A stretch of DNA of 64,000 nucleotides from Vicinamibacterales bacterium (GCA_965203525.1 OZ241898.1:1024176-1088175), one strand, 5' to 3'; counted from the stretch's first letter, positions 3,075 to 57,452 are shown. Notes: a model not told the origin generated them from the sequence alone. Program-made: numbers and translations.

Positions 3075-5186
3075 TCAGTCCGCCGGCAGCGCGAAGGCGA
3101 CGATCCGCGGGCCGCCGCCGATGCTGACGGCGATGTGCTGCCGGCCGTCGACCTGGTAGGTCATCGGCGTGCCGACGGTGCCCGCCGGCAGGTCGACGGC
3201 GCCGCGCACCTCGCCGGTCCGCTTGTCCCAGGCGACCAGGGCCGGCCCGCCCCCGCTGCCGGCGGTCGGCACCATGCTGACGAGCAGGGTCTTCGTCAGC
3301 AGCGGCCCGCCGATGGCGCCGTCGCCCACCGGCGGCAGGTTCAGGTGCCGCAGGCGGGGATGGTTGCGGATGCGGTCGCCGTTGCCGAGCGGGACCATCC
3401 AGACGTGTTCACCGGTGTTCATGTCGATGGCGGTCATCCGCGAGTAGGGGGGCTTGAGCAGCGGCAGTCCCTGCGGCATCCGCGCCTGGTACGACTGGCC
3501 GCGGCGGATCTGGCGGAGCCGCTGCTCCTCGGGGGCGCCGTGCGTGTACCGCATCGTTGCGCCGAGGGCCGGGTCCGGCGTGTAGAGCGGGATGGAGACG
3601 GCGACGTTGCGCGACGGGACGTAGAGCATCCCGGTCTCGGGATCGACGGCCGCGCCGGCCCAGCCGGCCGCGCCGAAGTCGGGCGGGCGCATCAGGGTGC
3701 CCTGCGCGCCGCCGGCGATGGGCCGGCCCGGCGGAGTGAAGAGCGGCCCGATCCGGTAGTTGGAGACCACCTCGATCGCCATGCGGCGGAGCTCCGGCGT
3801 GAAGTCCACCAGGTCGTCGATGGTGACCCCCTGGTAGTCGAACGGGGCCGGCTTCGTCGGGAACGGCTGCGTCGGCGACGGGACCTCGCCCGGCATGTTG
3901 GTCGCCTGCGGCACCGGGCGCTCCTCGATGGGCCACAGCGGCTCGCCGGTCACCCGGTCGAAGGCGTAGACGAACGCCTGCTTGCTCACCTGCGCGAGCG
4001 CCTTGACGGGGCGGCCGTCGACCACCAGGTCGACCAGGTTCGGGTGGGTCGGGAAGTCGTAGTCCCACAGCCCGTGGTGGACCGCCTGGAAGTGCCACAT
4101 CCGCTGGCCGGTCTCGACGTCGACGGCGATGATCGTCTCGGAGAAGAGGTTGTCGCCCGGCCGGTCGGCGCCGTAGTAGTCGTTCGTGGTGGTGCCGGTC
4201 GGCAGGTAGACGTAGCCGAGCTCGTTGTCGCCGGCGAGCATCGACCAGACGTTGGCGTTGCCGGAGTAGCGCCACGAATCGTTCAGCCAGGTGTCGACGC
4301 CGAACTCGTCGGCGCTGTTCGGCACGGTGTGGAAGTCCCAGGCGTGCTCGCCGGTGCGGACGTCCCACGCCCGCACCCAGCCGGGGGGCGCTTCCTTCGT
4401 GATGCGCCGGTCGGCGATCTGCGAGCCGTGGATCACCTTGTCGCGCACCACGATCGGCGGCGAATTGATGGAGTAGAGCAGGGCGTTGAGGTAGTCGCGC
4501 GCCTCGCGCTCGACCCGCGGGATGCCGACCATCGCGTCGACCATGCCGCTGCCGCCGGGTCCGAAGTCGGGGCACGGCTGCCCGGTCTGCGCCCGCACGC
4601 AGACGAGGTGGCCGTTGCCGGTGCCCCAGAAGATCCGCTCGTCGCCGGCGCCGTCGGTCCAGTAGGCGACGCCGCGCTGCGTCCAGGGCCCGCTCATCGA
4701 CGGGGTTCCCTCTTCGTAGCTCTTCGGGTTGAAGATCCAGAGCGTCTCGCCGGTGGCCGCGTCGACCGCGACCCCCTGCGACAGCGGCGTGTTGAAGTAG
4801 AGCACGCCGCCGACCATCAGCGGCGTCGCCTGCAGGCGTGACGGATTCGGGGGCTGGCTGTCGCGGTAGAGGTTCGGGGTCTCCTCGACCAGCGACTCGA
4901 CGATGACGCCGAGCGGGGCCGACCACTCGCCGCCGCCGGGCATGGTGCGGCTGACGAAGTTGTCGACCGACGTCCACTCCCACGCCACCTCCAGGTCGCC
5001 GAAGTTGTCCGCGTCGATCTGGTCGAGCGGCGAGTACTTGGTGCCCGCGACGTCGCCGGCGTAGCTGCGCCATTCGCCGTTCTCCGTGCCGTAGCTCTGC
5101 CACGGCCCGTCCGACGCCCGTTCCTGTGCGAAAGCGGCGCCTGCCCCGGTCAGCGCGGCGAGCGACGTGATCAGCAACGACCTCAT
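3075..5186 (-). CDS. PQQ-dependent (quinoprotein) dehydrogenase, secreted
   Basis: 703-aa ORF with signal peptide MRSLLITSLAALTGAGAAFAQ. Start of the mature protein is W..YG.....RYSPLDQI....L.VAW, typical of 8-bladed PQQ propeller dehydrogenases. W/G-rich propeller repeats run throughout. Confidence 0.85.
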   Translation of the reverse strand: MRSLLITSLAALTGAGAAFAQERASDGPWQSYGTENGEWRSYAGDVAGTKYSPLDQIDADNFGDLEVAWEWTSVDNFVSRTMPGGGEWSAPLGVIVESLVEETPNLYRDSQPPNPSRLQATPLMVGGVLYFNTPLSQGVAVDAATGETLWIFNPKSYEEGTPSMSGPWTQRGVAYWTDGAGDERIFWGTGNGHLVCVRAQTGQPCPDFGPGGSGMVDAMVGIPRVEREARDYLNALLYSINSPPIVVRDKVIHGSQIADRRITKEAPPGWVRAWDVRTGEHAWDFHTVPNSADEFGVDTWLNDSWRYSGNANVWSMLAGDNELGYVYLPTGTTTNDYYGADRPGDNLFSETIIAVDVETGQRMWHFQAVHHGLWDYDFPTHPNLVDLVVDGRPVKALAQVSKQAFVYAFDRVTGEPLWPIEERPVPQATNMPGEVPSPTQPFPTKPAPFDYQGVTIDDLVDFTPELRRMAIEVVSNYRIGPLFTPPGRPIAGGAQGTLMRPPDFGAAGWAGAAVDPETGMLYVPSRNVAVSIPLYTPDPALGATMRYTHGAPEEQRLRQIRRGQSYQARMPQGLPLLKPPYSRMTAIDMNTGEHVWMVPLGNGDRIRNHPRLRHLNLPPVGDGAIGGPLLTKTLLVSMVPTAGSGGGPALVAWDKRTGEVRGAVDLPAGTVGTPMTYQVDGRQHIAVSIGGGPRIVAFALPAD

Positions 5187-11992: not shown

Positions 11993-13310
11993 CGCCGGCA
12001 GCGCCCGCCGGCGCGCCGATCAGCGGCCGCGGTCCGGCGACCTGGAGTACAATGTCAAAGCCGGCGCGAGTCCGGTCGCGACGCCGTGATCGACGGGGCG
12101 TGGCTGCTCCGCGAGCATCGCTCACGCCCCTCGGCCACTCGCGTACGCGCTCGACTTCGGGCGCACGTCGCGCAGCAGGCCGATTCGATGGTCGACTTCG
12201 GTGAATGCGGATGGAGCAATGGCGAAGAAACCAGAAAGTGAAGCCGGCATCGCAATCGGCAATTCGTCCGGCAAGTTCATCATCGACTTCATCAGCGGCC
12301 AACAGGTGCGGGCGACGCCGGAGGAAGTCGACGCCGTGCAGGTCTTTGCCCGCCGTTTGGTTGAAGATTATGGCTACGGCAAGGAGCAAGTGCAAGTCCA
12401 TCCTCAACATCGAGTTCGGGCAAGACCTTCCGACAAGGATCGATCCTTTCCGGTAGACATAGCCGTTTTCCGCGCAGGGGCGAACAGAAGAGAAGACGGA
12501 CTCCTGATGATAGTGGAATGCAAGAAAAGCGACCAACGGGACGGCGAGCATCAGCTTCGGCTTTACATGGACATGTCCGCCGCGGAGGTAGGCGTCTGGT
12601 TCAACGGCGACGACCACCTCTACCTGCGCAAGATTCACCACGAGGACGGCCGCCGCACCTATCAGACTCTCCCCAACATACCTCGCAACGGGCAGCGGAT
12701 TGAAGACATCGGGCTGTACAAACGCAAGGACCTCGTCCGCCCGTCGAACTTGAAAGCCGTTTTCCGCGACATCCGCAACCACCTGGCGGGCATGACCATC
12801 GGGATTACACGGGACGCGGCGCTTGCTCAGGAAATCATCAACCTTCTCTTCTGCAAGCTGCTGGACGAACAGGAAACCGGTGCGGACGACACTGTAAGTT
12901 TTCGTGCCGGCGTCGGCGAGCCCCGAGATGGCGTCCGAACACGTATCCACGCCCTCTTTGAACGGGTGAAGGAGAACGTCTTTGGCGACGTCTTTGAACC
13001 CACTGATCGGATTCGCCTTGATCCCGACAGTCTTGCCTATGTGGTCGGGGAGCTTCAGAACTACACCATCCTGGAAGCGGATCGGGACGCAATCGGTGAA
13101 GCCTTCGAGGTTTTCATCGGGCCGGCGTTGCGCGGCGCGGAGGGGCAGTTCTTCACCCCCCGCAACGTCATCGAAATGATGGTGAAGATGGTGGACCCAA
13201 GGCCGGGGGAGAAAATCATCGACCCCGCGTGCGGTTCCGGCGGTTTCCTCATCACGGCCCTCTCCCATGTCTGGGAACTTCTGGGGAATGAAGCCGGCCG
13301 CAAGAATTGG

Positions 13311-15067
13311 GAATCTCCTCAAATGCGTGTGGGTAGGGGCGGCGCCAGTTCGATGCCTCCGCAGCACAGGAACAGCATCGAGATGAGCGCATCGGGGGAG
13401 TGGAAACCGTACGCGCGCCGCGCGATCACCCGCAGCTTGTTGTTGATGCCCTCCACCGGCCCGTTCGTCATCCGGGTGTCCAGATACGCCAGGATGCCCT
13501 CGGCGTGTTTCCGAATCGTGCGCCCCAGCTTCACGAACGGCTCCAGACGGGACCGCGCCGCCCACTCCAGCCACTCTTCGAGCAGCTCCGGCGCCTCCTC
13601 GGGGGGCGCCTGTTCCAGGATCGTCGCCAGGTACTCCTTCAGTTCGTAAGCCCGGTCCAGCGCCCGGTTCGCACGACGCAACTTCTCCAGGCGCCGGGCC
13701 TCCTTGGGCTTCAGCCGCGCCGGGTGTTTCAGCAGGTCGTAGCGCGCCCCCTTCAGCGCCTTCGCATCCTCCAGGTCCGGACGACGCTGCTCCGCGCGGC
13801 GCACCTCGTCCACCGCATCGGCGGCCAGCCGTTCGACGTGAAACCGGTCGAACACCACCCGCGCCTGCGGAGCCCACGCCCGCAACGCCTTCTGCCAGCT
13901 CGACGCCAGGTCCGCCGTCACCAACTCGATCCGCGCGCACCCGGCCGGTCCCAACTGCTCGAAGAAGGCCCCCAGCGTCTCCGCGCTACGGCCCGGTCCC
14001 GCCCACACCACACGACGCTCGTCATGGTCGACCACGAGGGTCAGGTAGCGGTGGCGTTTCCGGTAGCTGAACTCGTCCACGCCGATCCGCCTCAGCTTCG
14101 CGAACCGCCCCCGGTCCAGCCGCCGGGCCACCACCCGCTCCACGATGCTGCCCACCGTCACCCACGAGATCCCCAGCAGGCGGCTCACCGCCGTGCGGTC
14201 CGTCACCTGGGCCAGATACGCCGTCAACTCCTCGAACTCCGACGTGAACGCGCTGGTTCCGCTCGCCCACGGCACCCGCTCCACCTTCACCCCGCAACGC
14301 GGGCACGACACCCGCCACGGCGCATACCGCAGACACGCCGACAGCCGGCCCCACGACAGATGCCGCCACCTGCGTTCCGGCTGCCGGTCATACCGCGGCG
14401 CCCGCTTCCCGCACGCGCCGCACCGGGAACGCCGCCACGACGGCGCCACCGACGCCGTCAACGGACCGGCAGCGGGCATTTCCACCGCCTGGACGTACAT
14501 CTGCGTGACACCCAACAGCCGCCGTAGTACCGTAGTCAGACGCATGGGGCTCTCCTCCTCGCGGGTCCTGGTTGTTGCACATCCTGCCCATGAGACCAGG
14601 AAGCCCCTGCGTTTTGCAACCCGCTTCGGCGAGCACGACGACGCACGCGGCGCCGACGCCCCCCCGACACCGGCCGGCCGACGGAGGTTCACGGCCCGCG
14701 CCGGCCCCGGCGCCGCTAGCCGGTTCCCGTCCCCGAACCGCCGGCCGGCGCGCCGTCCGCGTCGTCGTGGACGGCCGGGACGCTCCCGTCCAGGCCGGGC
14801 CGCAAGGCCCATAACTGCTGTCTGAGCGGAGGGACGGACGGTGTGTCACCCGAAGGGCCGGAGCGCAGCGAAGGACGCGCGCAGCGCGTTGACACGCCGG
14901 CCGGCCCTCCGCTACCTCCGACGGCCCTGCCCCGACACCGTGCGACCCGGACCTGCCTCAAGCAGGTGCGCCACGACCCGTCAGTTCCGAGGTCGCCGGC
15001 GCTGTCGGCACCCCGCGCCGACCCGACGATCGCGCCGCAACTTGCCCACACTCGTTGCAGGAGAGCC
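13311..15067 (-). mobile_element. ISL3-family insertion sequence (1757 bp) with 8-bp target site duplication AGAATTGG
   Basis: The TSD agaattgg occurs at 13303-13310 and 15068-15075. The imperfect terminal inverted repeats are gaatctcctcaaatgcgtgtgggtagg... versus the reverse complement ggctctcctgcaacgagtgtgggcaag... An 8-bp TSD and a GGCTCT-type end fit ISL3. Confidence 0.85.
13319..14545 (-). CDS. ISL3 family transposase
   Basis: MRLTTVLRRLLG...; N-terminal zinc finger C..CG...C.RCG; DDE region ...IGVDEFSYRKRHRYLTLVVD...VTADLASSW...; C-terminal NGPVEGINNKLRVIARRAYGF. The likely ATG is at 14545, inside ORF 13319..14812. Confidence 0.9.
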   Translation of the reverse strand: MRLTTVLRRLLGVTQMYVQAVEMPAAGPLTASVAPSWRRSRCGACGKRAPRYDRQPERRWRHLSWGRLSACLRYAPWRVSCPRCGVKVERVPWASGTSAFTSEFEELTAYLAQVTDRTAVSRLLGISWVTVGSIVERVVARRLDRGRFAKLRRIGVDEFSYRKRHRYLTLVVDHDERRVVWAGPGRSAETLGAFFEQLGPAGCARIELVTADLASSWQKALRAWAPQARVVFDRFHVERLAADAVDEVRRAEQRRPDLEDAKALKGARYDLLKHPARLKPKEARRLEKLRRANRALDRAYELKEYLATILEQAPPEEAPELLEEWLEWAARSRLEPFVKLGRTIRKHAEGILAYLDTRMTNGPVEGINNKLRVIARRAYGFHSPDALISMLFLCCGGIELAPPLPTRI

Positions 15068-16750
15068 AGAATTGGACGGAGCGCCGGCTGGCAAAGCGCG
15101 AATTCGAAGTCGCGTCGGACTGCTTTCGCGGAATCGACAAGGACGCCTTTCTTTCCCGCGTGTGCAAGGCGTACATGGCCCTCGTCGGTGACGGACGTGG
15201 CGGCGTTTTCTGCCAGAACGCACTGGAGCCGGTCGATGACTGGGCGCCTCCGTTGCGTCAGGACGTGCGCCCCGGGACGTTCGACGTCGTTCTGACCAAT
15301 CCGCCTTTCGGCAAGAAAATCGTCGTCAAGGGTGAAAAGATAATCTCCCAGTTCGAGCTTGGCCGGAAGTGGAAATACAGCAATTCGAAGGCGTCCTGGA
15401 TGCCGTCCTCGGTTCGGCACGACAGGCTGCCTCCACAGATTCCCTTTTTGGAGCGTTGCATCCAACTGCTCAAGCCCGGCGGGCGTCTCGGCATCGTGCT
15501 GCCGGAGAGCATTTTCGGCAATCCTTCGCACGGTTACGTCATGCAGTGGCTCAGGTCCCGTTTGCGAATCACGGCAATCATCAACATGCCGGAGCCCCTG
15601 TTCAAGACCAGCGGGAAGGGTGGAACGCACACCAAGGTGTGCGTTTTGATCGGCGCGCTGGATGACCAGAACGGCCGTCCGATCTTCATGGCGGAAGCGA
15701 AATGGTGCGGGCATGACAGCCGCGGCAACCCCACCCGCCGCACACTTCCGGGCGGCGACACGGAGCTGCTTGACGAGGTTCCCGAAATCGCCGCTCGCTT
15801 TGCGCAGTGGCGCAGTGATGCGGAGGTTTTCACGCCTGACCACCGGGGATTCCCATTGCCATGCGGGAACATCGTCAACGACGTATTGATTCCGAGATAC
15901 TACAACCCGGAGATCGATGCGGAGATGTCCCGTCTTGAAAGCGACTACAAGTTCGTCGCCCTGGCGGACCTGGTTGAACAGGGCGTTTTGTCGTTCGCCA
16001 CCGGCATTGAGGTGGGCAAGATGGCGTACGGCACCGGCGACATCCCGTTCATCCGCACGTCGGACATTTCCAATTGGGAGATCAAGGCCGATTTCAAGCA
16101 CGGCGTCAGCGATGAAATATACGAGACCTGGAAAAGGAAGATCGACGTCCAGGTTGCCGATATCCTCATGGTGAAGGACGGGACGTACCTGATCGGCACC
16201 ACCGCCATAGTCACGCGCTTCGACCTGCCCATGCTGTTTCAGAGCCATCTGTATCGCATCAGAGTGCGCAAGCCGGAAGTCATCAGTCCGTGGCTGCTGT
16301 TCGCACTTCTCAACACACGGATCGTGCGGCTGCAAGTGCGCGCCAAACAGTTCACCCAGGACATCATTGACACCATAGGCCAGCGGGTCTTCGAGCTGGA
16401 GATTCCGGTGCCGCGGTCGCAAGAACAGTCACGACACCTTGCCGAGGAGTGCAAACGCATCATCGAAACCCGAGTCGGGTTGCGTCACGAGGCCAGCGCT
16501 TTGGTCGGAGCGGTCGGCGCTCTGTCGCCGCCGGACGTCGTTCAATAGATGCCGGCCTCCGCCGCACCGGTTCCGGCCGCGAAGACGAGCGGCGTCCGCG
16601 GCCGCGGGCCGGCCCGGTCGAGCGGCGGCCGGGGAGACTGATCGGCATCGGCCGGCGAGAGGTACCGGCGGGGCGGCGACCGCCGCGCCGCCGAACGAGA
16701 TCGGGGCGCTGCCCGGTTGGACGGCTTGGCGTATAATGTTGGAGATCCGT

Positions 16751-16827
16751 GCCGGTGTAGCTCAGCTGGTCAGAGCAAGCGGCTCATATCCGCTAGGTCC
16801 GGGGTTCAAGTCCCTGCACCGGCACCA
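16751..16827 (+). tRNA. tRNA with CAT anticodon (elongator Met or lysidine-modified Ile2)
   Basis: Cloverleaf read by eye. Acceptor stem gccggtg/caccggc; D arm gctcagctggtcagagc; anticodon stem-loop agcgg-ctCATat-ccgct; T arm cgggg-ttcaagt-ccctg; encoded CCA. A TATAAT box sits at 16733-16738. Confidence 0.85.
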
Positions 16828-17057
16828 CCAATCGAAATCATGGTGCGAACGGAACGACGCGTTCCCGGAGGCTGCATCCGTACCGGGGAATCGGCCGCAT
16901 ACCGGACAACTTGCGCTCGGCGCCGGCCGGATCCGTGACGGCTTCTGCTGGCTCGTCTGCCCGGGCTGCTGCGCGGGTGTGGACGGAGTCTCAGCCTCCA
17001 GCGGAATGCGTGGTCGTCGTCGTTGATCCGGACGACAAGGTTGTGTGACTTCGAGCG

Positions 17058-24565: not shown

Positions 24566-24814
24566 ATGGCCTGGATGCTGCGTCTGCTGCTGGCGGTGCT
24601 GATCATCCGGCTGCTCTGGAAGCTCGCCGCGGGCGTGGTCGCCGGCGTCCGCGATCCGCCGCCGCGCGGCGCGCAGCCGGGGGGCGCCCTCGTGCGCGAT
24701 CCGGTGTGCGGTACCTACGTCGAGCCTGCGCGCGCCCTCAGCACCCGCGCCGGCCGGGAGACGCATTACTTCTGTTCGAAGGAATGCCAGCGGTCGTTCG
24801 TGAAGACCGCGTGA
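24566..24814 (+). CDS. Small membrane-anchored YHS/TRASH-domain protein
   Basis: N-terminal TM helix followed by DPVCGTYV.......G...YFCSKECQRSF. Confidence 0.7.
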   Translation: MAWMLRLLLAVLIIRLLWKLAAGVVAGVRDPPPRGAQPGGALVRDPVCGTYVEPARALSTRAGRETHYFCSKECQRSFVKTA

Positions 24815-24837
24815 CGCGGAACGGCCACCCGGAAGCC

Positions 24838-25725
24838 ATGAACCCCGAAGAAGCCCGGCGCGCCGAGATCGTCGAGATCGGCCGCCGCCTGCACCAGCGC
24901 GCCTACGTCGCCTCGAACGACGGGAACGTCAGCGTGCGCCTCGACGCCGAGCGCCTCCTGACCACCCCGAAGGGCGTGTCGAAGGGCTTCATGTCCCCCG
25001 ACATGCTGGTGATCACCGACTACGAGGGGCGCAAGCTGGCCGGCGAACGGGACCCGTCTTCCGAGCTGCCGATGCACCTCGCCGTGTACCGGCGCCGCGC
25101 CGACGTCACGGCCGTCGTCCACGCCCATCCGCCCGTCGCGACCGGTTTCGCGGTGGCCGGGATCCCGCTCGACCGGGCGGTGCTGGCCGAGGTGGTCACG
25201 ACGCTCGGCAGCATTCCGATCGCGGAGTACGGGACGCCGTCGACGCAGGCGCTGGCCGATGCGGTCGACCGGCACGTCGCGGCGCACGACGGCCTGTTGC
25301 TGGCCAACCACGGCGCCATCACGGTGGCCGACGGGCTGCTGCCCGCGTACTACAAAATGGAGACGATCGAGCATTTCGCGCGCATCAGCGTGGTGGCCCG
25401 CATCCTCGGGCGCGAACGGCTGCTGTCGCGCGAGGAGGTCAACCGCCTGCAGGAGCTACGCGGCACGTACGGGATCGCCGCCCCCGCCCCGATCTGCCCG
25501 GAGGGCGACGGAATCGTCGCCGGCGGCGATGCGGCCTGCCAGACGCTGGAGGCGCCCTCCGCAACGGGCCGGCAGCTCGTGGACGACGTGCCGGCCGTTC
25601 CCGGCGCCGCGCCGCCGGCGGACGGAGCGGAGGAAATTCGTCTAACATACCGCGAACTGGCGGCGATCGTCGAAGACGCCGTCAACCGTCTGCGCGAGCA
25701 GGCGAATGCGTCCCGGAGCGGTTGA
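24838..25725 (+). CDS. Class II (fuculose/rhamnulose-1-phosphate type) aldolase with ~80-aa C-terminal extension ending in an amphipathic helix
   Basis: [36 protein letters not shown]. The extension ...[24 protein letters not shown] looks like a BMC encapsulation peptide. Confidence 0.85.
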
Positions 25726-25753
25726 CGGGGCGTCCGGCGCGGGCGGAGGACAC

Positions 25754-26038
25754 ATGGGTGAAGCGTTGGGGCTGGTCGAGACCAAGGGTCTCGTGGCGAT
25801 GATCGAAGCGGCCGATGCGATGGTCAAGGCCGCCAAGGTGACGCTGGTCGGCTGGGAGAAGATCGGCGCCGGCTACGTGACGGCGATCGTGCGGGGCGAC
25901 GTGGCGGCCGTCAAGGCCGCGACCGACGCCGGCGCCGCCGCGGCGCGCCGGGTCGGCGAGCTGGTGTCGGTGCACGTGATCCCGAGACCGCACGCCAACC
26001 TCGAGGACGCTCTGCCGATCGGCAAGTCCGGCGTATAA
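25754..26038 (+). CDS. BMC-H hexameric shell protein (PF00936, PduA/EutM/CcmK-like)
   Basis: [58 protein letters not shown]. Confidence 0.95.
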
Positions 26039-26042
26039 GGCC

Positions 26043-26321
26043 GTGATCCTGGCCCGGATCGTCGGAACCGTCGTGGCGACGTGCAAGGACGAGCGGCTCG
26101 TCAGCAACAAGCTGCTGGTGGTGCAGCCGATTGAACCCGGCGGCGCGGCGCGCGGCAGCCATCTGGTGGCGGTCGACACGGTCGACGCCGGGGCGGGGGA
26201 GACGGTGCTCGTCGTCGGCGGCAGTTCGGCCCGGATGGCCGGCGGCCTGCAGGATACGCCCGTGGACGCGGCGATCGTCGGCATCGTCGATTCCATCGCG
26301 CTGGCCGCCGATCGGAACTGA
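26043..26321 (+). CDS. BMC-P pentameric vertex protein (EutN/CcmL family), paralog 1
   Basis: MILARIVGTVVATCKDERLVSNKLLVVQPI...VAVDTVDAGAGETVLVV.GSSAR...DAAIVGIVD. Confidence 0.9.
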   Translation: MILARIVGTVVATCKDERLVSNKLLVVQPIEPGGAARGSHLVAVDTVDAGAGETVLVVGGSSARMAGGLQDTPVDAAIVGIVDSIALAADRN

Positions 26322-26366
26322 CGCCGCCGGTGGTTCTCCGGCGCCGCCGGAAGGTTGCGTACCGCG

Positions 26367-26648
26367 ATGCAGTTGGCGCGCGTCATCGGTGACGTCGTGG
26401 CGACCGTGAAGGACCGCACCCTGCACGGCCGGAAGCTGCTCGTGCTGCAGCCGCTGACGCCGGCCGGCGCGGCGTGCGGCCGGCCGCTGGTGGCGGTCGA
26501 CGCGGCCGGCGCGGGCGCCGGCGAGACGGTGTTCTTCGTGCGCGGCCGCGAGGCCTCGTTTCCCTTCCTGCCGGACGCGGTGGCGACCGACGCCAGCGTC
26601 GTCGGCATCGTCGATCACTGGACGGTGACGCCGGAAACGCCCGCCTGA
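26367..26648 (+). CDS. BMC-P pentameric vertex protein, paralog 2
   Basis: MQLARVIGDVVATVKDRTLHGRKLLVLQPL...VAVDAAGAGAGETVFFV...DASVVGIVD. Confidence 0.88.
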   Translation: MQLARVIGDVVATVKDRTLHGRKLLVLQPLTPAGAACGRPLVAVDAAGAGAGETVFFVRGREASFPFLPDAVATDASVVGIVDHWTVTPETPA

Positions 26649-26655
26649 TCCCGCC

Positions 26656-27033
26656 ATGCAGCTCGCCCGCGTGACCGGCACCGTCGTCGCGACGCACAAG
26701 CACGAGAAGCTGCTCGGGGCGAAGCTGCTGCTCGTGCAGCCGCTCGACGCCGGGGGCGTTGCGCGCGGCGCGCCGCTGCTGGCGGTGGACGCCGCGCAGG
26801 CCGGGGTCGGCGACCGCGTGCTGGTGGTCCGGGAGGGGCAGGCCGCGGTGGCCGCCATCCGCCGCCCCGCCGCGCCCGCCGACACCGCCATCGTCGGGAT
26901 CGTCGACCGGGTGGACGGCCCGGGCGGCGCGCCGGCGCCGGTGCGGGCCGGCGCCGCATCCGGGAGGGATTCGTTCGGCGGCGGGCAGACGGCCGCGCGG
27001 GCGGACTCCGTGCCGGCGGGGAGGGAGCCGTGA
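26656..27033 (+). CDS. BMC-P pentameric vertex protein, paralog 3, with a C-terminal low-complexity tail
   Basis: MQLARVTGTVVATHKHEKLLGAKLLLVQPL...LAVDAAQAGVGDRVLVV...DTAIVGIVD. Confidence 0.88.
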   Translation: MQLARVTGTVVATHKHEKLLGAKLLLVQPLDAGGVARGAPLLAVDAAQAGVGDRVLVVREGQAAVAAIRRPAAPADTAIVGIVDRVDGPGGAPAPVRAGAASGRDSFGGGQTAARADSVPAGREP

Positions 27034-27413
27034 CGCAGCCGGAGGTGCGCGCCGCCGTCGACGCCGCCATTCGCCGCCACCTGGCCGCGCGCCGCGCGGC
27101 GCCGCCGGCTGACGGGCCGCGGCCGGTCGCGCCGCCGCGGGCGGAGCAGCAGGCCGGTGACGCGGCGGTCACGGAGGGAGCACCGGGCCCGCCGTCGCCG
27201 GCGTCATCCGGGCCGCACGACCGCCCGGGCACGGAACTCGGTTCGATGTCGTCCGGTGCGCCGGGTCCGCCGCCGGCATCGTCCGGGCCGCACGCCAGCC
27301 ACGGCCGGTTCCCCCGCGCCGCCCGGCCGGGGGACCCGCCCGAGGGCCGTTGCGTGATCGAGCCCGAGGCCGAGTGCGTCGGCTCCGGATACTGCCGCTC
27401 GCACGGCTACTAG
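27030..27413 (+). CDS. Small BMC-operon protein: N-terminal amphipathic helix, Pro/Gly/Ser-rich repeat linker, C-terminal C-x8-C-x5-C tail
   Basis: The GTG at 27030 overlaps the stop of the third BMC-P gene. N-terminus QPEVRAAVDAAIRRHLAAR. Internal repeat APGPPSPASSGPH / APGPPPASSGPH. C-terminus GRCVIEPEAECVGSGYCRSHGY. I recognise no family. Confidence 0.55.
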   Translation: MTQPEVRAAVDAAIRRHLAARRAAPPADGPRPVAPPRAEQQAGDAAVTEGAPGPPSPASSGPHDRPGTELGSMSSGAPGPPPASSGPHASHGRFPRAARPGDPPEGRCVIEPEAECVGSGYCRSHGY

Positions 27414-46767: not shown

Positions 46768-46817
46768 GAAGATACCCCCTGCTCACCTTCGGACTCCCGG
46801 GAAGGCGATGGTTCCCG

Positions 46818-48563
46818 GTGTCCCTCCGTCTCGGCGAGTTCCTGCTCGAGAAGCGGCGCATCACGCAGGCCCAGTTCGAAGAGGCGCTGGCGTTCCGGGA
46901 GGCCAACGGCGGCGATCTCGGCAGCGTCCTGGTCCGCCTGGGATTCCTTCCGCCCGACGAGATCGCGGAGCTGCGCGGCGCGCAGTACGGCGTGCGGTCG
47001 ATCGACCTTTCCGGCTTCGAGATCGAGCCCGGCATCATCGGGTTGATACCGGCTCACACGGCCCGCAAGCACCGCATCGTGCCCTTGCGCCGCTCGGGCG
47101 CGACGCTGACGGTCGTGATGGCCGATCCGCGCAACGTCGCCGCGCTCGACGAAGTCCGGTTCCGCACCGGTTGCGCCGTCGAACCGCTGGTGGCGTCGGA
47201 GGCCGCGGTCGCCGCCGCCCTCGCCCGCCACTACGACGCCCCTCCGGATCCATCCGCGGCGGGCGGCGGCGGACCCGCCCTCGACGTGGCGGTGCGGGAG
47301 ATCGAGAAGCTGCCGGGCAGTCCGGACGATCCGCGGTCGGCGGACGACGAGCCGGAGATCGACCTTGCCGCGGGCGGCGAGGCGCGCGGGTTGGCGCCGG
47401 TGGTGCGGCTGGTGAACGTCATCCTGGCGTCCGCCGTGCAACGGGGCGCCAGCGACGTGCACGTCGAGTCGTACGAGAAGCAGTTCCGGATCCGGTTCCG
47501 CGTCGACGGCGTGCTCCACCAGGTGATGACGCCGCCGTTGCGCATGCGCGACGCCGTCACCTCGCGTCTCAAGGTGATGGCGAAGCTCGACATCGCGGAG
47601 CGCCGTGTGCCGCAGGACGGGCGGGTGCGGATCCGCTGCCGCGACGGGAGCGCGACCAAGGCGATCGATCTGCGGGTTTCGTGCCTCCCGACCCTCTTCG
47701 GCGAGAAGATCGTCCTGCGCCTGCTGGACAAGGCCCACCTCATGCTCGACATGACGAAGCTGGGGTTCGAGGAGGAGTCGCTCCGGCGTTTCACGGCGAA
47801 CATCCGCAAGCCGTGGGGCATGGTGCTGGTGACCGGCCCGACCGGGAGCGGCAAGACCAGCACGCTCTATTCGTCGATCGCGCGGCTCAACACCCCGGAC
47901 ACCAACATCGTGACCGCCGAGGACCCGGTGGAGTTCAACCTGGACGGCGTCAACCAGGTGCAGATTCGCGAGGGGGCCGGCCTGACCTTCGCCGCCGCGC
48001 TCCGCTCGTTCCTGCGCCAGGATCCGAACGTCATCCTGGTCGGCGAGATTCGGGACGTCGAGACCGCGGAGATCGCCGTGAAGGCGGCGCTGACCGGTCA
48101 CCTGGTGCTGTCGACCCTGCACACCAACGACGCGCCGAGCGCCGTCGGCCGTCTCCTGAACATGGGGGTCGAGCCGTTCCTGATCGCCGGATCGGTCAAC
48201 CTCGTCTGCGCGCAGCGCCTCGTGCGCCGGGTGTGCCGCGCCTGCGCGGCGCCGGCCGCGGCGAGTCCGCCGGCGCTGGTCGACGTCGGCTTCAGCGAGG
48301 CCGAGGCGCGCGTCGTGACGCCTTCCGCGGGGAAGGGGTGCGACGCGTGCGGCCGGACCGGCTACAAGGGACGGGTCGGTCTCTACGAGGTGCTGGAGGT
48401 GACCGACCCGCTGCGCGAGCGGATCCTCGCCGGGGGCTCGCCCCGCGCGCTGCGGCGCGCGGCGATCGACGAGGGGATGCTCACCCTGCGCCGGAGCGGC
48501 CTGCGCAAGATCACCGCCGGCGTCACCACGATCGACGAGGTGGTACGGGAGACGATGCCATGA
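46818..48563 (+). CDS. pilB: Type IV pilus assembly ATPase PilB (GspE family)
   Basis: T2SSE_N domain (LGEFLLEKRRITQAQFEEAL..); Walker A GPTGSGKTST; Asp/His boxes; tetracysteine CRACA...CDACGRTGYKGR. Confidence 0.92.
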   Translation: MSLRLGEFLLEKRRITQAQFEEALAFREANGGDLGSVLVRLGFLPPDEIAELRGAQYGVRSIDLSGFEIEPGIIGLIPAHTARKHRIVPLRRSGATLTVVMADPRNVAALDEVRFRTGCAVEPLVASEAAVAAALARHYDAPPDPSAAGGGGPALDVAVREIEKLPGSPDDPRSADDEPEIDLAAGGEARGLAPVVRLVNVILASAVQRGASDVHVESYEKQFRIRFRVDGVLHQVMTPPLRMRDAVTSRLKVMAKLDIAERRVPQDGRVRIRCRDGSATKAIDLRVSCLPTLFGEKIVLRLLDKAHLMLDMTKLGFEEESLRRFTANIRKPWGMVLVTGPTGSGKTSTLYSSIARLNTPDTNIVTAEDPVEFNLDGVNQVQIREGAGLTFAAALRSFLRQDPNVILVGEIRDVETAEIAVKAALTGHLVLSTLHTNDAPSAVGRLLNMGVEPFLIAGSVNLVCAQRLVRRVCRACAAPAAASPPALVDVGFSEAEARVVTPSAGKGCDACGRTGYKGRVGLYEVLEVTDPLRERILAGGSPRALRRAAIDEGMLTLRRSGLRKITAGVTTIDEVVRETMP

Positions 48564-48653
48564 CCGCGCCGTCGATCCTCTCGGTGCTTACATGCTTGCG
48601 CCTCTACCGAGCAGGCGTACGGGAGACGATGCCATGACCGCGCCGTCGATCCT
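48543..48653. repeat. 37-42 bp duplication (period 74) of the pilB-stop/pilT-start junction
   Basis: gtacgggagacgatgccatgaccgcgccgtcgatcct occurs at 48543 and again at 48617. The intervening ~30 nt are unrelated. Confidence 0.9.
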
Positions 48654-49752
48654 GTCGGAGCTGCTTGCCCGCACCGCCGCGCGGGGCGGGTCGGATCTGC
48701 ACCTGACCGCGGGCGCTCCGCCGCAGATCCGCGTGCACGGCGCCCTCGAGCCGCAGGCGGACCTCGAACCGCTGACGCCGGCCGACGCGCAGCGCGTGAT
48801 CTACGGCGGACTGACCGCGGCGCAGCGGCAGCGCTTCGAAGAGACCCGGGAACTCGACGTGGCGTTCGGAATCGAAGGCGTGGGGCGGGTGCGCGCCAAC
48901 GTCTTCCGCCAGCGCGGCTCGGTGGCGGCCGCGTACCGCCTGATTCCGGACCGGATCCAGGATCTGGACCGGCTCGGCCTGCCTCCCGTGGTGGCGGAGC
49001 TGGCCGGGCGTCCGCACGGGCTCGTGCTGGTGACCGGGCCTACCGGCAGCGGCAAGAGCACGACGCTGGCGGCGCTGATCGACCGCATCAACAGGGAGCG
49101 GCGGGGGCACGTGCTGACGATCGAGGATCCGATCGAGCACGTCCACCCCCACCGGCGCTCGATCGTCAACCAGCGCGAGGTGCACGGCGACACGGCCGGC
49201 TTCGAGCCGGCGTTGCGGGCGGCGTTGCGGGAGGACCCCGACGTCGTGCTCATCGGCGAGATGCGCGACCTGGAGACGACCGAGGCGGCGCTGCGGATCG
49301 CCGAGACCGGCCATCTGACCCTGGCCACCTTGCACACGAGCTCGGCGGCGCACGCCGTCGGCCGGGTGATCGACCTCTTCCCCGCGCACCAGCAGCAGCA
49401 GGTCCGTACCCAGCTCTCGCTGGTGCTCGAAGGGGTCGTCTGCCAGGCCCTCGTGCCGGCCGCCGGGGGCCGGGGGCGCGTCTGCGCCGTCGAGGTGCTG
49501 ATCGCCACGCCGGCGATCCGCAACCTGATCCGCGAGGACAAGGCGCACCTGATCTACGCGGCGATGCAGGCGGGCCGGCGGCAGAGCGGCATGCGGACGA
49601 TGACCCAGGCGCTCGCGGCCCTCTGCCGGCAGGGGCGCGTCACGCGGGAGGAGGCGCTCGACCACGCCGCGAACCGCGAGGAACTGGAAGGCCTGCTCGC
49701 CGGCGGGACGGACGAGCCGGGTTGGGCGCCGCGCGGGAGGGCGCTCCGATGA
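48634..49752 (+). CDS. pilT: Twitching motility ATPase PilT
   Basis: GGSDLHLTAGAPPQIRVHG; GPTGSGKSTTLAA; IGEMRDLET...ETGHL...TLHT; AIRNLIRE. Confidence 0.93.
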   Translation: MTAPSILSELLARTAARGGSDLHLTAGAPPQIRVHGALEPQADLEPLTPADAQRVIYGGLTAAQRQRFEETRELDVAFGIEGVGRVRANVFRQRGSVAAAYRLIPDRIQDLDRLGLPPVVAELAGRPHGLVLVTGPTGSGKSTTLAALIDRINRERRGHVLTIEDPIEHVHPHRRSIVNQREVHGDTAGFEPALRAALREDPDVVLIGEMRDLETTEAALRIAETGHLTLATLHTSSAAHAVGRVIDLFPAHQQQQVRTQLSLVLEGVVCQALVPAAGGRGRVCAVEVLIATPAIRNLIREDKAHLIYAAMQAGRRQSGMRTMTQALAALCRQGRVTREEALDHAANREELEGLLAGGTDEPGWAPRGRALR

Positions 49753-50969
49753 CGCAGGCCACCTTCGTCTTCCGCGGCCGCACCCGGCAGGGAGAGCGGG
49801 TGCGCGGGGAACGCCGGGCCGCGTCCGCGGCGGACGCCGTCGCCGCGTTGCGGCGCGAGCAGATTCTGGTGACCGCGATCGACCCGGTCGACCGGAGCGC
49901 CCGGGGGGCGTGGTGGAGGCGGGTCCGCGGAACGGTCCCGGCGCGGAGCCTCGCCGTGTTCACCCGGCAGTTCGCGGTGCTGGTCGACGCCGGACTGCCG
50001 CTGGTGCAGTGCCTGGACGTCCTCGGGAGACAGGAGGAGGACAGGCGCTTCGCCGCGACGATCCGTGCGGTGCGATCCGACGTCGAGGACGGCTCGACGC
50101 TGGCCGACGCGCTGCGCGCCCACCCCCGCTCGTTCGATCCGCTCTACACGAGCATGGTCGCGGCGGGGGAGGCCGGCGGCGTGCTCGACACGATTCTGGA
50201 GCGTCTGGCCGCGCACGTCGAGAAGCACGCCGCCCTGCGGGGGCAGGTCCGCTCGGCCATGACGTACCCCGTGGCGGTTCTCGCCGTCGCCGCCGTCGTC
50301 GTGGGGGCGATTCTCTGGAAGGTCATCCCGACGTTCGCGGCGCTCTTCGAAGGGTTCGGCGCGGTGCTGCCGCTGCCGACGCGGATCGTCATCGCGGCGA
50401 GCGACTCGCTCGCGTTCGCGGCGCCGCTGGCGGGCCTGGGCGCGCTGGGCGCGGCGCTGGCGTTTCGTCGATACTATTCGACGCGCGGCGGCCGGCTGGC
50501 GATCGACGGCGTCGCGCTCCGGCTGCCGGCGCTGGGGGGCGTCGTGCGCCGCAACGCCGTCGCCCGGTTCTGCCGCACCCTGTCGGCGCTGCTCGGCGCC
50601 GGCGTGCCGATCCTCGAAAGCCTGGAGATCACCGCCGGCACGGCCGGGAACGCGGTGGTCGAGGATGCGGTGCTGAATACGCGCGCGGCGATCGAGCGCG
50701 GCGAGCCGGTGGCCGCGCCGTTGCGCGACACGCAGGTGTTTCCGGTGCTGGTGACGCAGATGATCAACGTGGGCGAGACGACCGGCGCCCTGGATGCGAT
50801 GCTGGCGAAGGTGGCGGATTTCTACGAGGAGGAGGTCGATCGGGCCGTCGCCGGCATGACGGCGCTGCTCGAGCCGGTGCTGGTGGCGGTGCTGGGCGTC
50901 GTCGTCGGGGGCATCGTGGTGGCCATGTACCTGCCGGTGTTCGACCTGATCGGCCGGCTGGCGGGATGA
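49749..50969 (+). CDS. pilC: Type IV pilus inner-membrane platform protein PilC (GspF family)
   Basis: Two T2SSF repeats; ...MINVGETTGALDAML...; the ATG overlaps the pilT stop. Confidence 0.9.
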   Translation: MTQATFVFRGRTRQGERVRGERRAASAADAVAALRREQILVTAIDPVDRSARGAWWRRVRGTVPARSLAVFTRQFAVLVDAGLPLVQCLDVLGRQEEDRRFAATIRAVRSDVEDGSTLADALRAHPRSFDPLYTSMVAAGEAGGVLDTILERLAAHVEKHAALRGQVRSAMTYPVAVLAVAAVVVGAILWKVIPTFAALFEGFGAVLPLPTRIVIAASDSLAFAAPLAGLGALGAALAFRRYYSTRGGRLAIDGVALRLPALGGVVRRNAVARFCRTLSALLGAGVPILESLEITAGTAGNAVVEDAVLNTRAAIERGEPVAAPLRDTQVFPVLVTQMINVGETTGALDAMLAKVADFYEEEVDRAVAGMTALLEPVLVAVLGVVVGGIVVAMYLPVFDLIGRLAG

Positions 50970-51007
50970 GAAGCGGACGGGCGACGGAAGCGAAAGGAGA
51001 CGGAACG

Positions 51008-51544
51008 ATGAGACGGACACTGAAGGAACAGGAAGGGTTCACGCTGATCGAGCTGCTGATCGTCGTGGCGATCATCGGCATCATCGCCGCGATCGCCGCG
51101 CCGGGGCTGCTGCGGGCGCGGATGGCGGGCAACGAAGCGTCGGCGATCGGATCGCTGCGGGCGATCAACGGCGCGCAGGCGACCTACGCGGCCAGTTGCG
51201 GCAGCGGCTTCTATGCGCCGACGCTGGCCAACCTGGCGACGCCGCCGACGGTCGGCGGGGGCGGGGACGGGTTCATCGGCACCGATCTGGGCGCCGATCC
51301 GTCGATCAAGAGCAGCTACACGATCACGATGACCGGCGGAGCCGCCGCGACCGGCGCCCCGGCCTCGTGCAACGGCGTGGCCGCCGGCGGGGTGGTCGCC
51401 ACCTACTTCGTGGGGGCCGACCCGAATCCGGGCGGCGGGACGCGCTTCTTCGGAACGAACCAGGGGGCGACCATCTATCAGGCCACGGCCGCCCTGCCCG
51501 TGACCCAGACGGGCGCGCCGGCCGGCGCCGCGCCGATACAGTAG
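51008..51544 (+). CDS. Type IV pilin / pseudopilin with prepilin cleavage-methylation motif
   Basis: Leader MRRTLKEQEG followed by FTLIELLIVVAIIGIIAAIAAP. Two cysteines (ASCGSG and PASCNG). The RBS aaaggaga lies upstream. Confidence 0.88.
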   Translation: MRRTLKEQEGFTLIELLIVVAIIGIIAAIAAPGLLRARMAGNEASAIGSLRAINGAQATYAASCGSGFYAPTLANLATPPTVGGGGDGFIGTDLGADPSIKSSYTITMTGGAAATGAPASCNGVAAGGVVATYFVGADPNPGGGTRFFGTNQGATIYQATAALPVTQTGAPAGAAPIQ

Positions 51545-51666
51545 CGCCGCCCTGGCCGGCCGGCGCTGCGCCGATACGGGGGGCGCCGCCTGGCCGGCCG
51601 GCGCTGCGCCGATACGGGTGCCGTCGCCTGGCCGGCCGGCGCCGCGCCGATGCGGTGGCGCCGCCC
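51514..51666. repeat. Tandem array of a 37-39 bp unit, 3 full copies plus partial ends, seeded in the pilin 3' end
   Basis: Unit cgccgcc(c)tggccggccggcgcYgcgccgatRcgg.g. at 51545, 51584 and 51622. The last 30 nt of the pilin gene (gcgccggccggcgccgcgccgataca) form a zeroth copy. Confidence 0.85.
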
Positions 51667-51783
51667 TTGACGGCGCCGCGAGATGCCTTTACAAGTGGAC
51701 GGGACGGCGGGGGGGACGGCGCGGACCGCCGGAACGGATACGCGCCCGCTTGCGCGGGGGGAAGAACGGGGGGTGGAGGAACG

Positions 51784-53028: not shown

Positions 53029-53056
53029 CCCTCCGGGAACCCCGGCGGACACGGCG

Positions 53057-54016: not shown

Positions 54017-54038
54017 ATTCGGGCGCGGCGGAACGGCC

Positions 54039-55822: not shown

Positions 55823-55921
55823 GCGACCCGTTCTCCGGCCTGCTCGTCCGAGAAAATCGACCGTGATGCCGTTTCGAACATCATGACGCGATGAGCGACC
55901 CGTTCTCCGGCCTGCTCGTCC
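55816..55921. repeat. 34-bp duplication (period 72) of the upstream-stop/pilD-start junction
   Basis: gcgatgagcgacccgttctccggcctgctcgtcc occurs at 55816 and at 55888. Confidence 0.9.
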
Positions 55922-56691: not shown

Positions 56692-56819
56692 ACCGGGGCG
56701 CGGAGCAGATTCCGCGCGGTCACCATCCGCCCGCGCGCGCGGAATCCGCCGCGTCGGACGGGAACCGGCCGCGGGGACGGGCGCATTCTGCTGGCCCGGT
56801 TCTTGCTTTTTTCGTCGCC

Positions 56820-57440: not shown

Positions 57441-57452
57441 GACCCGCCGGCC

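Follow-up and report, generated by a model that had tools for sequence, protein, structure and literature searches.

The region at positions 24838-27413 of the window, by which we mean the whole 64-kb stretch of DNA that was analyzed, is in all likelihood the main locus of an ACI-type microcompartment (metabolosome) with a reduced gene set, located on a Vicinamibacterales chromosome (Acidobacteriota, subdivision 6). Six co-directional, tightly packed genes make up the region, and they encode a class II aldolase, a hexameric shell protein (BMC-H), three pentameric shell proteins (BMC-P), and a small Cys protein (Table 1). The gaps between them, read from the sequence, are 28, 4, 45, and 7 nt, with the last pair overlapping by 4 nt. 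The locus belongs to a catalogued type and is no new kind of system; its reduced architecture is the departure from the catalogue.

Table 1. Genes of the locus and of the adjoining YHS-domain protein, in window coordinates
Product	Position	Strand	Basis
YHS-domain protein, 82 aa	24566..24814	+	PF04945 sub-threshold; linkage
Class II aldolase, 295 aa	24838..25725	+	PF00596, E 2.4e-45
BMC-H hexamer shell protein, 94 aa	25754..26038	+	PF00936, 3e-30
BMC-P paralog 1, 92 aa, GTG start	26043..26321	+	PF03319, 1.3e-29
BMC-P paralog 2, 93 aa	26367..26648	+	PF03319, 1.6e-25
BMC-P paralog 3, 125 aa	26656..27033	+	PF03319, 8.6e-27, aa 1-84
Small ACI-specific Cys protein, 127 aa	27030..27413	+	without Pfam or NCBIfam match

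Gene order and selection

An earlier note on this DNA had described six genes in one direction, packed or overlapping, among them a class II aldolase, a BMC-H, and three paralogous BMC-P. All six were recovered where it had placed them, and the profiles with which it had proposed to search, PF00936, PF03319, and PF00596, all found matches, the first in the BMC-H, the second in each of the three BMC-P, and the third in the aldolase. Its account of the flanking genes, cdaA-cdaR-glmM upstream and queE-queC downstream, was correct for those genes and overlooked the gene for a YHS-domain protein that lies between glmM and the aldolase gene.

The module is a stable feature of the chromosomes of relatives. 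Independent gene calls in these genomes give the order tilS-ftsH-folP-cdaA-cdaR-glmM-YHS-ALD-H-P-P-P-Cys-...-queC, and the module stands at one shared chromosomal position in 80 of 80 species examined, these being the 80 best-matching among at least 597 species genomes. The reading frames of all genes of the locus are intact, and comparison with six relatives gave dN/dS values of 0.00 to 0.43 over all seven genes, the YHS gene included, indicating purifying selection. Rfam searches and scans for promoters and terminators across the locus returned nothing informative.

Correspondence with the ACI type

The ACI type was defined in a catalogue of microcompartment loci (Sutter et al. 2021, Nat Commun 12:3809, PMC8217296), where it comprises 125 loci from Acidobacteria, mainly of subdivisions 4 and 6, the latter being the subdivision to which the Vicinamibacterales are assigned. 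As catalogued, the ACI main locus contains a pf00596 aldolase with an encapsulation peptide (EP) at its C terminus, a BMC-H, an adjacent triplet of BMC-P belonging to the green, grey, and orange clades, and an ACI-specific protein of about 80 aa with an EP at its N terminus and three conserved Cys (PMC8217296). It also contains a hydroxyacid dehydrogenase (HADH; pf00389/02826) and two more proteins without known homologs, one of them with three conserved His, while the aldehyde dehydrogenase (AldDh; pf00171), whose EP lies near its C terminus, is placed, in "most genomes" where ACI loci occur, on a satellite locus (PMC8217296). The ACI aldolase is reported there to be closest to the aldolases of the HO and MIC3 types (PMC8217296).

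The window agrees with this description in its acidobacterial host, in a PF00596 aldolase with an EP-like tail, in a BMC-H with the standard interface motifs, and in a Cys protein with an N-terminal helix and three invariant Cys. Its three side-by-side PF03319 genes, which resemble the ACI triplet in family and adjacency, are candidates for the green, grey, and orange clades. The main locus is without AldDh and without BMC-T in both, and the missing AldDh would be accounted for by the placement of this enzyme on a satellite locus in the catalogue. The points of departure are the absence of HADH, a Cys protein of 127 aa as against about 80 aa, and the proteins catalogued as unknown, of which one of three is clearly present, with the YHS protein, at a sub-threshold Pfam score, as the sole further candidate. 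In the part of the catalogue's tree files that was searched, neither Luteitalea nor Vicinamibacter had a match. The earlier note had reckoned with a match to a known BMC type, and one was found; ACI is catalogued, though not experimentally characterized, and the literature searched held no experiment on any ACI compartment.

Aldolase and its C-terminal extension

The PF00596 domain of the aldolase spans aa 10-184 of 295, and the catalytic domain as a whole about aa 1-213. The nearest solved structures are those of FucA (6btd and 4c24), which cover aa 7-212, and the His, Glu, Ser, and Asn positions aligned to FucA motifs are invariant in 13 homologs. Because all NCBIfam equivalogs score under their cutoffs (OtnC, 125 bits; FucA, 122 bits), the enzyme is placed in its class and no substrate is assigned. 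The gene evolves under clear constraint (dN/dS, 0.08 to 0.18).

Beyond the catalytic domain lies an extension of about 80 aa. Its linker, of about 55 aa, bears a conserved pair of Cys, C220 (nt 25495-25497) and C234 (nt 25537-25539), kept in 81 of 83 relatives. The extension ends in a conserved amphipathic helix (approximately nt 25633-25698) with the motif E[IV]RLTYxEL, which is present in most of the 83 relatives. A low-confidence AF2 model gives coil at residues 211-270 followed by helix at 271-293, and the hydrophobic moment of the helix is equalled by only 2% of shuffles. From these properties we predict that the C-terminal helix is an EP.

Shell proteins

Over 92 aa the BMC-H has 70% identity to Haliangium ochraceum HO-5815, and the KAAK and IPRPH motifs of the interface are common to the two. 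The BMC-H is nearly invariant among relatives (dN/dS, 0.00 to 0.03), and no second BMC-domain gene was found in the 64 kb. The three adjacent BMC-P are mutually 53 to 55% identical. Paralog 1, whose scores are 64 bits against EutN (2hd3) and 62 bits against the HO BMC-P of 5v74, is the most canonical pentamer or vertex protein of the three, and in relatives its orthologs come first in the triplet. PDB matches of paralog 2 lie at 43 to 46 bits; judged by best-hit identity, this is the paralog apparently lost in a sister subclade with two BMC-P (L010-L014 and L208/L209). Paralog 3 combines a EutN fold (PDB matches, 43 to 47 bits) with a low-complexity C-terminal tail of about 40 aa, and its counterparts in relatives are 106 to 107 aa long.

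Cys protein and YHS protein

The Cys protein matches no family in Pfam or NCBIfam. AF2 models an N-terminal helix at aa 3-23 (nt 27036-27098) with a pLDDT of about 97 and the rest of the chain at low confidence, and this helix is taken as a putative EP. The middle of the protein is a Pro-rich linker containing a 25-aa duplication, which accounts for its length relative to the 79 aa of its orthologs in relatives. The C-terminal domain (nt 27300-27410) has the pattern H91...C108-VIEP-x3-C116-x5-C122-xSHG, and in an alignment of 28 family sequences C108, I110, E111, P112, C116, C122, and G126 are invariant. The earlier note had spoken of a tiny Cys-tailed protein. Most family members have a fourth Cys (CxHCGYC), which is Ser in the window copy. 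The domain is presumed to be a metal or Fe-S site, and the gene has dN/dS values of 0.34 to 0.42. AF2 models of the Cys domain and of the aldolase lacked the confidence that fold searches require.

A profile of the Cys protein gave 256 matches among 1.84 billion representatives, and the 150 matches listed are stand-alone proteins of 68 to 135 aa, except for one outlier of 982 aa. The idea that the Cys domain and the tail of about 50 aa on the ACI AldDh are homologs is unsupported by this HMMER search, since the matches listed are short and stand-alone but for that outlier, and a word-based search gave it no support either.

The YHS protein scores 27.2 bits to PF04945 against a Pfam cutoff of 30.3, has a weak NCBIfam match to the PP0621 family, and has an N-terminal hydrophobic segment, MAWMLRLLLAVLIIRLLWKLAAGVVAGV; it is possibly a membrane-anchored metal-binding protein. 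Its gene lies immediately 5' of the aldolase gene in 80 of 81 Vicinamibacteria loci, has dN/dS values of 0.28 to 0.40, and is retained in the reduced clade, where the neighboring TPR and pdxJ genes are lost. The TPR/TM protein that precedes YHS in other Vicinamibacteria is absent from the window. On grounds of linkage, the YHS gene may be a seventh member of the unit.

Relatives and gene content

Homologs of the aldolase at 70 to 99% identity carry the names Vicinamibacterales or Acidobacteriota, and the 80 best-matching genomes, out of at least 597 species, are MAGs of Vicinamibacteria or Acidobacteriota, save two records under the titles Acidimicrobiia and Bifidobacteriaceae. Thousands of metagenomic homologs of the aldolase came from a protein search, and a plasmid collection held no ACI-like aldolase.

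Of 68 assessable Vicinamibacteria loci, 50 have HADH and 18 are without it; among the latter are the ten closest relatives that the 80-locus species scan gave. In a census of gene sets covering 69 loci, the largest group (34 loci) has the Cys protein, HADH, and three BMC-P; nine loci, the window among them, have the Cys protein and three BMC-P without HADH, five have the Cys protein and two BMC-P without HADH, and 15 have HADH without the Cys protein. This dehydrogenase, which resembles glyoxylate/hydroxypyruvate reductases and in most Vicinamibacteria directly follows the shell genes, has been lost or relocated in the lineage of the window, and it is dispensable in the ACI main locus. A search with the HADH of locus L020 found no ortholog on reduced-clade contigs among the 120 matches listed, at 62% identity or above, which is a weak negative because the listing rests on cluster representatives.

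Enzymes of the canonical metabolosome are likewise missing from the window. The earlier note had stated that AldDh, PTAC, and acetate kinase are not encoded nearby, and our searches agree: Pfam found none of PF00171, PF00389/PF02826, PF06130, and PF00871 in about 40 further genes of the window, and tblastn with Escherichia coli EutE found no AldDh in the 64 kb or in 85 related loci, examined to 10 kb. Neither Pfam nor tblastn with a Vicinamibacteria ACI HADH detected an HADH in the 64 kb. A degenerate DNA probe for the AldDh motif TGEGxTxARxF, written with GC-rich codons, was run on metagenome contigs, and all 120 loci returned encode a EutE-like AldDh; the same probe had no match on viral contigs. 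Wherever the alignment reached the EutE C terminus, these enzymes proved to be without the ACI-type C-terminal extension, as their open reading frames end within one residue of that terminus, and they were rejected as the ACI AldDh. The loci that encode them are other BMC types, including HO- and MIC-like ones, with aldolases 48 to 51% identical to that of the window. The part of the catalogue's EP-HMM supplement that was searched contained no ACI model.

Alternative readings of the locus

The earlier note left a choice between a satellite shell locus and a compartment with the aldolase as its only enzyme. Given that the ACI AldDh is normally encoded elsewhere, this choice is mostly resolved in favor of an ACI main locus, with a small residual weight on the aldolase-only reading. 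We consider it quite improbable that the region is a satellite feeding extra shell paralogs to a complete metabolosome elsewhere, as the incomplete enzyme set of the window could suggest, when this locus itself houses the EP-bearing signature enzyme, the one basal BMC-H observed, and the complete set of three BMC-P, and the same module holds its position in every one of the 80 best-matching species examined, of at least 597. A minimal compartment, holding the aldolase only or the aldolase and the Cys protein and working without encapsulated AldDh, would be something other than a canonical metabolosome, and we regard it as unlikely. It is favored by the absence of AldDh from the 64 kb and from within 10 kb of 85 related loci, by the prior loss of HADH and of the TPR gene from the lineage and of one BMC-P from a sister subclade, and, as a weak test, by the lack of a close HADH ortholog on reduced-clade contigs among the matches listed; the small gene set is, moreover, functional, since the remaining genes are under purifying selection. 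What counts against it is that we know of no precedent for a compartment that generates an aldehyde and does not consume it, and that, in "most genomes" that have ACI loci, an EP-bearing AldDh is encoded at a satellite locus (PMC8217296). As the catalogue reports the enzyme there, a position away from the main locus is usual for it and does not speak for its absence. Doubtful, too, is a more specific proposal, in which the ACI organelle of this subclade has been streamlined to seven genes, without HADH and perhaps without encapsulated AldDh, and the Cys pair of the aldolase tail and the Cx7Cx5C domain share a metal or Fe-S site in the shell. If true, the seven-gene unit would be a non-canonical, metal-dependent aldolase compartment, not a classical metabolosome. 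Decay to an ACI relic that no longer forms a compartment could explain the progressive loss along the lineage of HADH, TPR, and pdxJ, the loss of paralog 2 in the sister clade, and a Cys protein whose low-complexity linker is duplicated and in which Ser stands where most family members have a fourth Cys. It is very hard to reconcile with intact frames, dN/dS values of 0.00 to 0.43 in seven genes, a nearly invariant BMC-H, and the keeping of the same reduced set in nine assessable loci, the window included, and we give it little credence.

The remaining comparisons are with other catalogued types. Erbilgin and colleagues reportedly described, in 2014, the PVM microcompartment of Planctomycetes and Verrucomicrobia as serving fucose and rhamnose degradation. 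The PVM core comprises AldDh, PTAC, acetate kinase, and a reductase alongside shell genes. The window has in common with this type a signature enzyme of the class II aldolase family and the BMC-P triplet, and the two probably follow the same general logic, in which an aldehyde made by the aldolase is oxidized inside the shell. They differ in enzyme content, the PVM core enzymes being absent here, and in the ACI-specific Cys protein, which the window has and PVM lacks. They also differ in phylum and in the number of BMC-H, as the catalogue confines PVM to Planctomycetes and Verrucomicrobia and gives it two BMC-H, whereas the window has an acidobacterial host and one; the third BMC-P clade, moreover, is purple in PVM and green in ACI (PMC8217296). 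We therefore set aside the PVM assignment suggested in the earlier note, and identity with a PVM-type fucose/rhamnose metabolosome has next to no probability. The HO type (PDB 5v74 and 5djb) is close in its shell, with a BMC-H of 70% identity bearing the same interface motifs and a triplet of BMC-P, and a class II aldolase accompanies many HO loci. HO differs from the window in its Myxococcota host, in having BMC-T and, in the main locus, an AldDh with an N-terminal EP, and in having no Cys protein.

Proposed function and significance

For an ACI main locus, a working scheme can be put forward. By analogy with BMCs in general and with the homologous H. ochraceum shell, BMC-H hexamers would tile the facets of a polyhedral shell and BMC-P pentamers would cap its vertices, and amphipathic helices would, by similar analogy, attach the aldolase and the Cys protein to the luminal side of the shell as it assembles. 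Within the shell, the Zn-dependent class II aldolase would cleave a ketose-1-phosphate (of the fuculose-, rhamnulose-, or pentulose-1-phosphate type), yielding DHAP and a reactive aldehyde of short chain, either lactaldehyde or glycolaldehyde, which a satellite-encoded, EP-bearing acylating AldDh would turn into acyl-CoA before it escapes. The Cys protein would bind a metal or Fe-S center, and the upstream YHS membrane protein may bind metal too.

The gene sets compared here show that the conserved ACI core of Vicinamibacteria is very small: one BMC-H and two or three BMC-P, with an aldolase that bears an EP and often a Cys protein that bears one too. The aldolase has relatives in at least 597 species genomes, and few microcompartments of soil bacteria appear to be as widespread as those of the ACI type. 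The interval 24566-27413, of about 2.9 kb, makes a convenient construct with which to study shells without BMC-T, the roles of the BMC-P paralogs, and the substrate of the aldolase or the cofactor of the Cys protein.

Locus content and type assignment

The microcompartment (BMC) locus is the main locus of a known type, the acidobacterial ACI of the catalogue of Sutter et al. 2021 (PMC8217296), in a reduced form that lacks the hydroxyacid dehydrogenase (HADH; pf00389/02826). It is thus already catalogued and not a new kind of system. The earlier note had suggested a planctomycete/verrucomicrobial (PVM) type and proposed typing against published catalogues; comparison with the catalogue's descriptions gave ACI, and the PVM suggestion was not borne out. 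All six plus-strand reading frames that the note had listed are present, five of them with matching Pfam families, but its listing left out a seventh, the YHS gene (see table). The flanks it gave, cdaA-cdaR-glmM upstream and queE-queC downstream, were also right; the upstream series is tilS-ftsH-folP-cdaA-cdaR-glmM. From the aldolase to the third BMC-P gene the gaps are 28, 4, 45, and 7 nt, and the third BMC-P gene overlaps that of the small ACI-specific Cys protein by 4 nt. The BMC-P genes are true paralogs with mutual identity of 53 to 55%, and the BMC-H protein is 70% identical to the Haliangium ochraceum shell hexamer, the KAAK and IPRPH motifs being common to both.

Features of the ACI locus and of other parts of the window
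Feature	Position	Strand	Match or remark
YHS-domain protein, 82 aa	24566-24814	+	PF04945, 27.2 bits, slightly below cut-off (Pfam)
Class II aldolase	24838-25725	+	PF00596, E 2.4e-45 (Pfam)
Aldolase linker, C220 and C234	25495-25539		
BMC-H	25754-26038	+	PF00936, E 3e-30 (Pfam)
BMC-P, first paralog	26043-26321	+	PF03319, E 1e-29 (Pfam)
BMC-P, second paralog	26367-26648	+	PF03319, E 2e-25 (Pfam)
BMC-P, third paralog	26656-27033	+	PF03319, E 9e-27 (Pfam)
Cys protein	27030-27413	+	No family in Pfam or NCBIfam
Direct repeat in Cys protein linker	27192-27230 / 27267-27305		
PQQ-dependent dehydrogenase	3075-5186	-	
Lower-GC island	12000-16830		
N6-DNA-methylase fragments	12501-13649, 15049-16548		
Transposase	13319-14518	-	ISL3 family
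tRNA-Met gene	16751-16827		
ATPase, 614 aa	29042-30886	-	AAA_15/AAA_21 (OLD/AbiEii-like)
Type IV pilus/secretion-like cluster	46812-59188		
Prepilin peptidase	55885-56691		PF06750/PF01478
PilX_N match	58562-59188		Weak, sub-threshold

In the catalogue's account, ACI was defined from 125 loci, "exclusively in Acidobacteria" and mainly in subdivisions 4 and 6, and comprises a pf00596 aldolase whose C-terminus bears an encapsulation peptide (EP), an HADH, a side-by-side BMC-P triplet, one or more BMC-H proteins that carry the standard motifs, and a short protein that has an N-terminal EP and three cysteines (PMC8217296). The window has the aldolase C-terminal helix, the BMC-H motifs, and the protein with an N-terminal helix and three cysteines, and it carries three adjacent BMC-P genes, but it differs in having no HADH. 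The absence of aldehyde dehydrogenase (AldDh; pf00171) is not anomalous, because the same account describes it for the main locus of ACI. The assignment is secure because of the peculiar Cys protein and the host taxon, Vicinamibacteria being a class of Acidobacteriota by lineage look-up. Window G+C is ~72%. Full-length homologs of the aldolase number in the thousands; the best 120 are 70 to 99% identical, and the named ones come from Vicinamibacterales or Acidobacteriota. When a single genome was scanned for each species, no fewer than 597 genomes contained relatives. The 80 best-matching genomes are MAGs assigned to Vicinamibacterales, Vicinamibacteria, or Acidobacteriota, except two labelled Acidimicrobiia and Bifidobacteriaceae. 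Our full-text literature search found ACI compartments treated solely in the catalogue and its preprint, and no experimental work. For a type this abundant and uncharacterised, the compact version in the window is a convenient experimental entry point.

Aldolase, Cys protein, and YHS protein

Alignment to FucA structures (6btd and 4c24) places the end of the aldolase domain near residue 213, leaving an extension of ~80 residues. The terminal segment, nearly invariant in 13 homologs and kept in most of 83 Vicinamibacteria aldolases, is predicted by a low-confidence model to be a helix after a long coil, and its hydrophobic moment is matched by just 2% of shuffles. His, Glu, Ser, and Asn positions aligned with the FucA motifs SSE, HAH, and NHG are invariant. 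The substrate cannot be named, because all NCBIfam equivalogs score far below cut-off, the best being 3-oxo-tetronate-4-phosphate decarboxylase (125 bits; cut-off, 250) and fuculose-phosphate aldolase (122 bits; cut-off, 264). Speculatively, the linkage to HADH in sister lineages would be as compatible with C2/C3 hydroxy-acid or glycolaldehyde chemistry as with lactaldehyde.

Two cysteines, C220 and C234, lie in the linker between domain and EP in a motif, PxPxC...CQ, that is kept in 81 of the 83 Vicinamibacteria aldolases and goes unmentioned in the catalogue's treatment of ACI (PMC8217296). The pair hints at a metal or redox site that lies beyond the catalytic domain. The Cys protein family aligns over an N-terminal helix, MTxPDVRAAVEAAIRRHL (AF2 pLDDT of ~97 for residues 3 to 23), and has invariant C108, C116, and C122 within CVIEPxxxCxxxxxC. 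This gives Cx7Cx5C plus a near-invariant His, extended by a fourth Cys in most members to Cx7Cx2Cx2C. A profile run against 1.84 billion representatives returned 256 relatives; the 150 listed are all short stand-alone proteins except one 982-aa outlier. The Pro-rich linker contains an imperfect direct repeat (75-nt spacing, 82% identity), which accounts for a length of 127 aa in the window against 79 aa in orthologs of close relatives; the long form is common to only a few of these.

The YHS gene sits 23 nt 5' of the aldolase, and its product has a YHS-type Cys motif after a hydrophobic N-terminal segment. In 80 of 81 Vicinamibacteria loci the gene immediately precedes the aldolase, and it is retained where the TPR and pdxJ neighbours are lost; its product may belong to the ACI unit and could have a role related to metal. 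Together, the Cys protein motif, the linker cysteines, and the adjacent YHS protein suggest that the locus has a metal or redox aspect, likewise suspected in the catalogue's account (PMC8217296).

Reduced architecture among related loci

By called-gene clustering and tblastn, we compared the window with 85 related loci that included flanks of up to 10 kb. The BMC genes occupy one chromosomal position, glmM ... queE/queC, in every one. The commonest order in Vicinamibacteria is glmM - pdxJ - (alpha/beta hydrolase) - TPR/TM protein - YHS - aldolase - BMC-H - P - P - P - Cys protein - HADH - nth - PPIase - ... - queE - queC, the HADH being glyoxylate/hydroxypyruvate-reductase-like. This gene is in 50 of 68 assessable loci and missing from 18, among them the window and all 10 species genomes of the scan in which aldolase identity to the window's is 79% or more. 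In a gene-content census of 69 assessable loci, 34 had the Cys protein, HADH, and three BMC-P genes; 15 had HADH and three BMC-P without the Cys protein; and nine, the window counted, had the Cys protein and three BMC-P without HADH. Five had the Cys protein and two BMC-P without HADH, five had three BMC-P only, and one had the Cys protein, HADH, and two BMC-P. The type is thus modular, with an invariant core of aldolase, BMC-H, and BMC-P, and the window represents a reduced version of it.

A sister subclade (L010-L014, L208, and L209; aldolase 79 to 82% identical) has two BMC-P genes only, as the gene calls supplied with the collection confirm. Judged by best-hit identity, the gene missing there corresponds to the second of the window's paralogs, and the subclade offers a natural experiment on the need for a BMC-P triplet.

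In all 80 species examined, the BMC genes lie within the conserved housekeeping block tilS-ftsH-folP-cdaA-cdaR-glmM ... queE-queC, and this shared position speaks for vertical descent throughout the order and against a mobile island. Against six relatives, dN/dS was 0.08 to 0.18 for the aldolase, 0.00 to 0.03 for BMC-H, 0.15 to 0.43 for the BMC-P genes, 0.34 to 0.42 for the Cys protein, and 0.28 to 0.40 for the YHS gene. With this range, 0.00 to 0.43 over all seven genes, decay is a very unlikely reading of the reduced gene set.

Core enzymes and proposed working

Gene calls based on GC content by codon position covered all 64 kb, and about 40 of the genes were scanned against Pfam; none was an AldDh, 2-hydroxyacid dehydrogenase, PduL-type phosphotransacylase, or acetate kinase. 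Nor did tblastn with Escherichia coli EutE and Vicinamibacteria HADH match the window, so that the absence of core enzymes remarked on earlier holds. A protein search for a relocated HADH listed no match on contigs of the reduced clade, which is weak negative evidence. A compartment working with the aldolase alone, with no satellite AldDh, would agree with the negative EutE search near all 85 related loci (up to 10 kb of flank each), but it is unlikely because the catalogue, in its account of the type, reports a satellite in most ACI genomes (PMC8217296). A 33-nt degenerate probe for the AldDh C-terminal motif TGEGxTxARxF, ACSGGSGARGGSNNNACSNNNGCSCGSNNNTTY, was run on metagenome contigs, and all 120 loci retrieved (L087-L206) carry EutE-like aldehyde dehydrogenase genes, many adjoining BMC-H or BMC-P genes. 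Among those whose alignment reaches the C-terminus, none has the C-terminal extension expected for an ACI AldDh. Three of the 120 loci (L162, L106, and L155) are HO/MIC-like, HO being the H. ochraceum microcompartment, with aldolases 48 to 51% identical to the window's.

With a separately encoded AldDh, the compartment would work as follows, by analogy with BMCs in general and the homologous HO shell. BMC-H hexamers would form the facets and BMC-P pentamers the vertex caps, and the EP-bearing aldolase and Cys protein would be packaged inside. The aldolase would yield DHAP and a short aldehyde, which the predicted EP-bearing AldDh would oxidise.

Other features of the window

Next after queC comes the AAA_15/AAA_21 ATPase gene, possibly a mobile defence gene; close relatives have a Peptidase_S13 gene after queC and an AAA_15 and DUF4276 pair upstream of tilS. 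The lower-GC island (64 to 67% versus ~72%) adjoins the tRNA-Met gene and has the transposase between the methylase fragments, probably a restriction-modification gene split by an insertion sequence. In the pilus cluster, PilB/GspE-, PilT-, and PilC-like ATPase/platform genes and a pilin-like gene were read by eye only. The cluster and the PQQ-dependent dehydrogenase are unrelated to the ACI locus.
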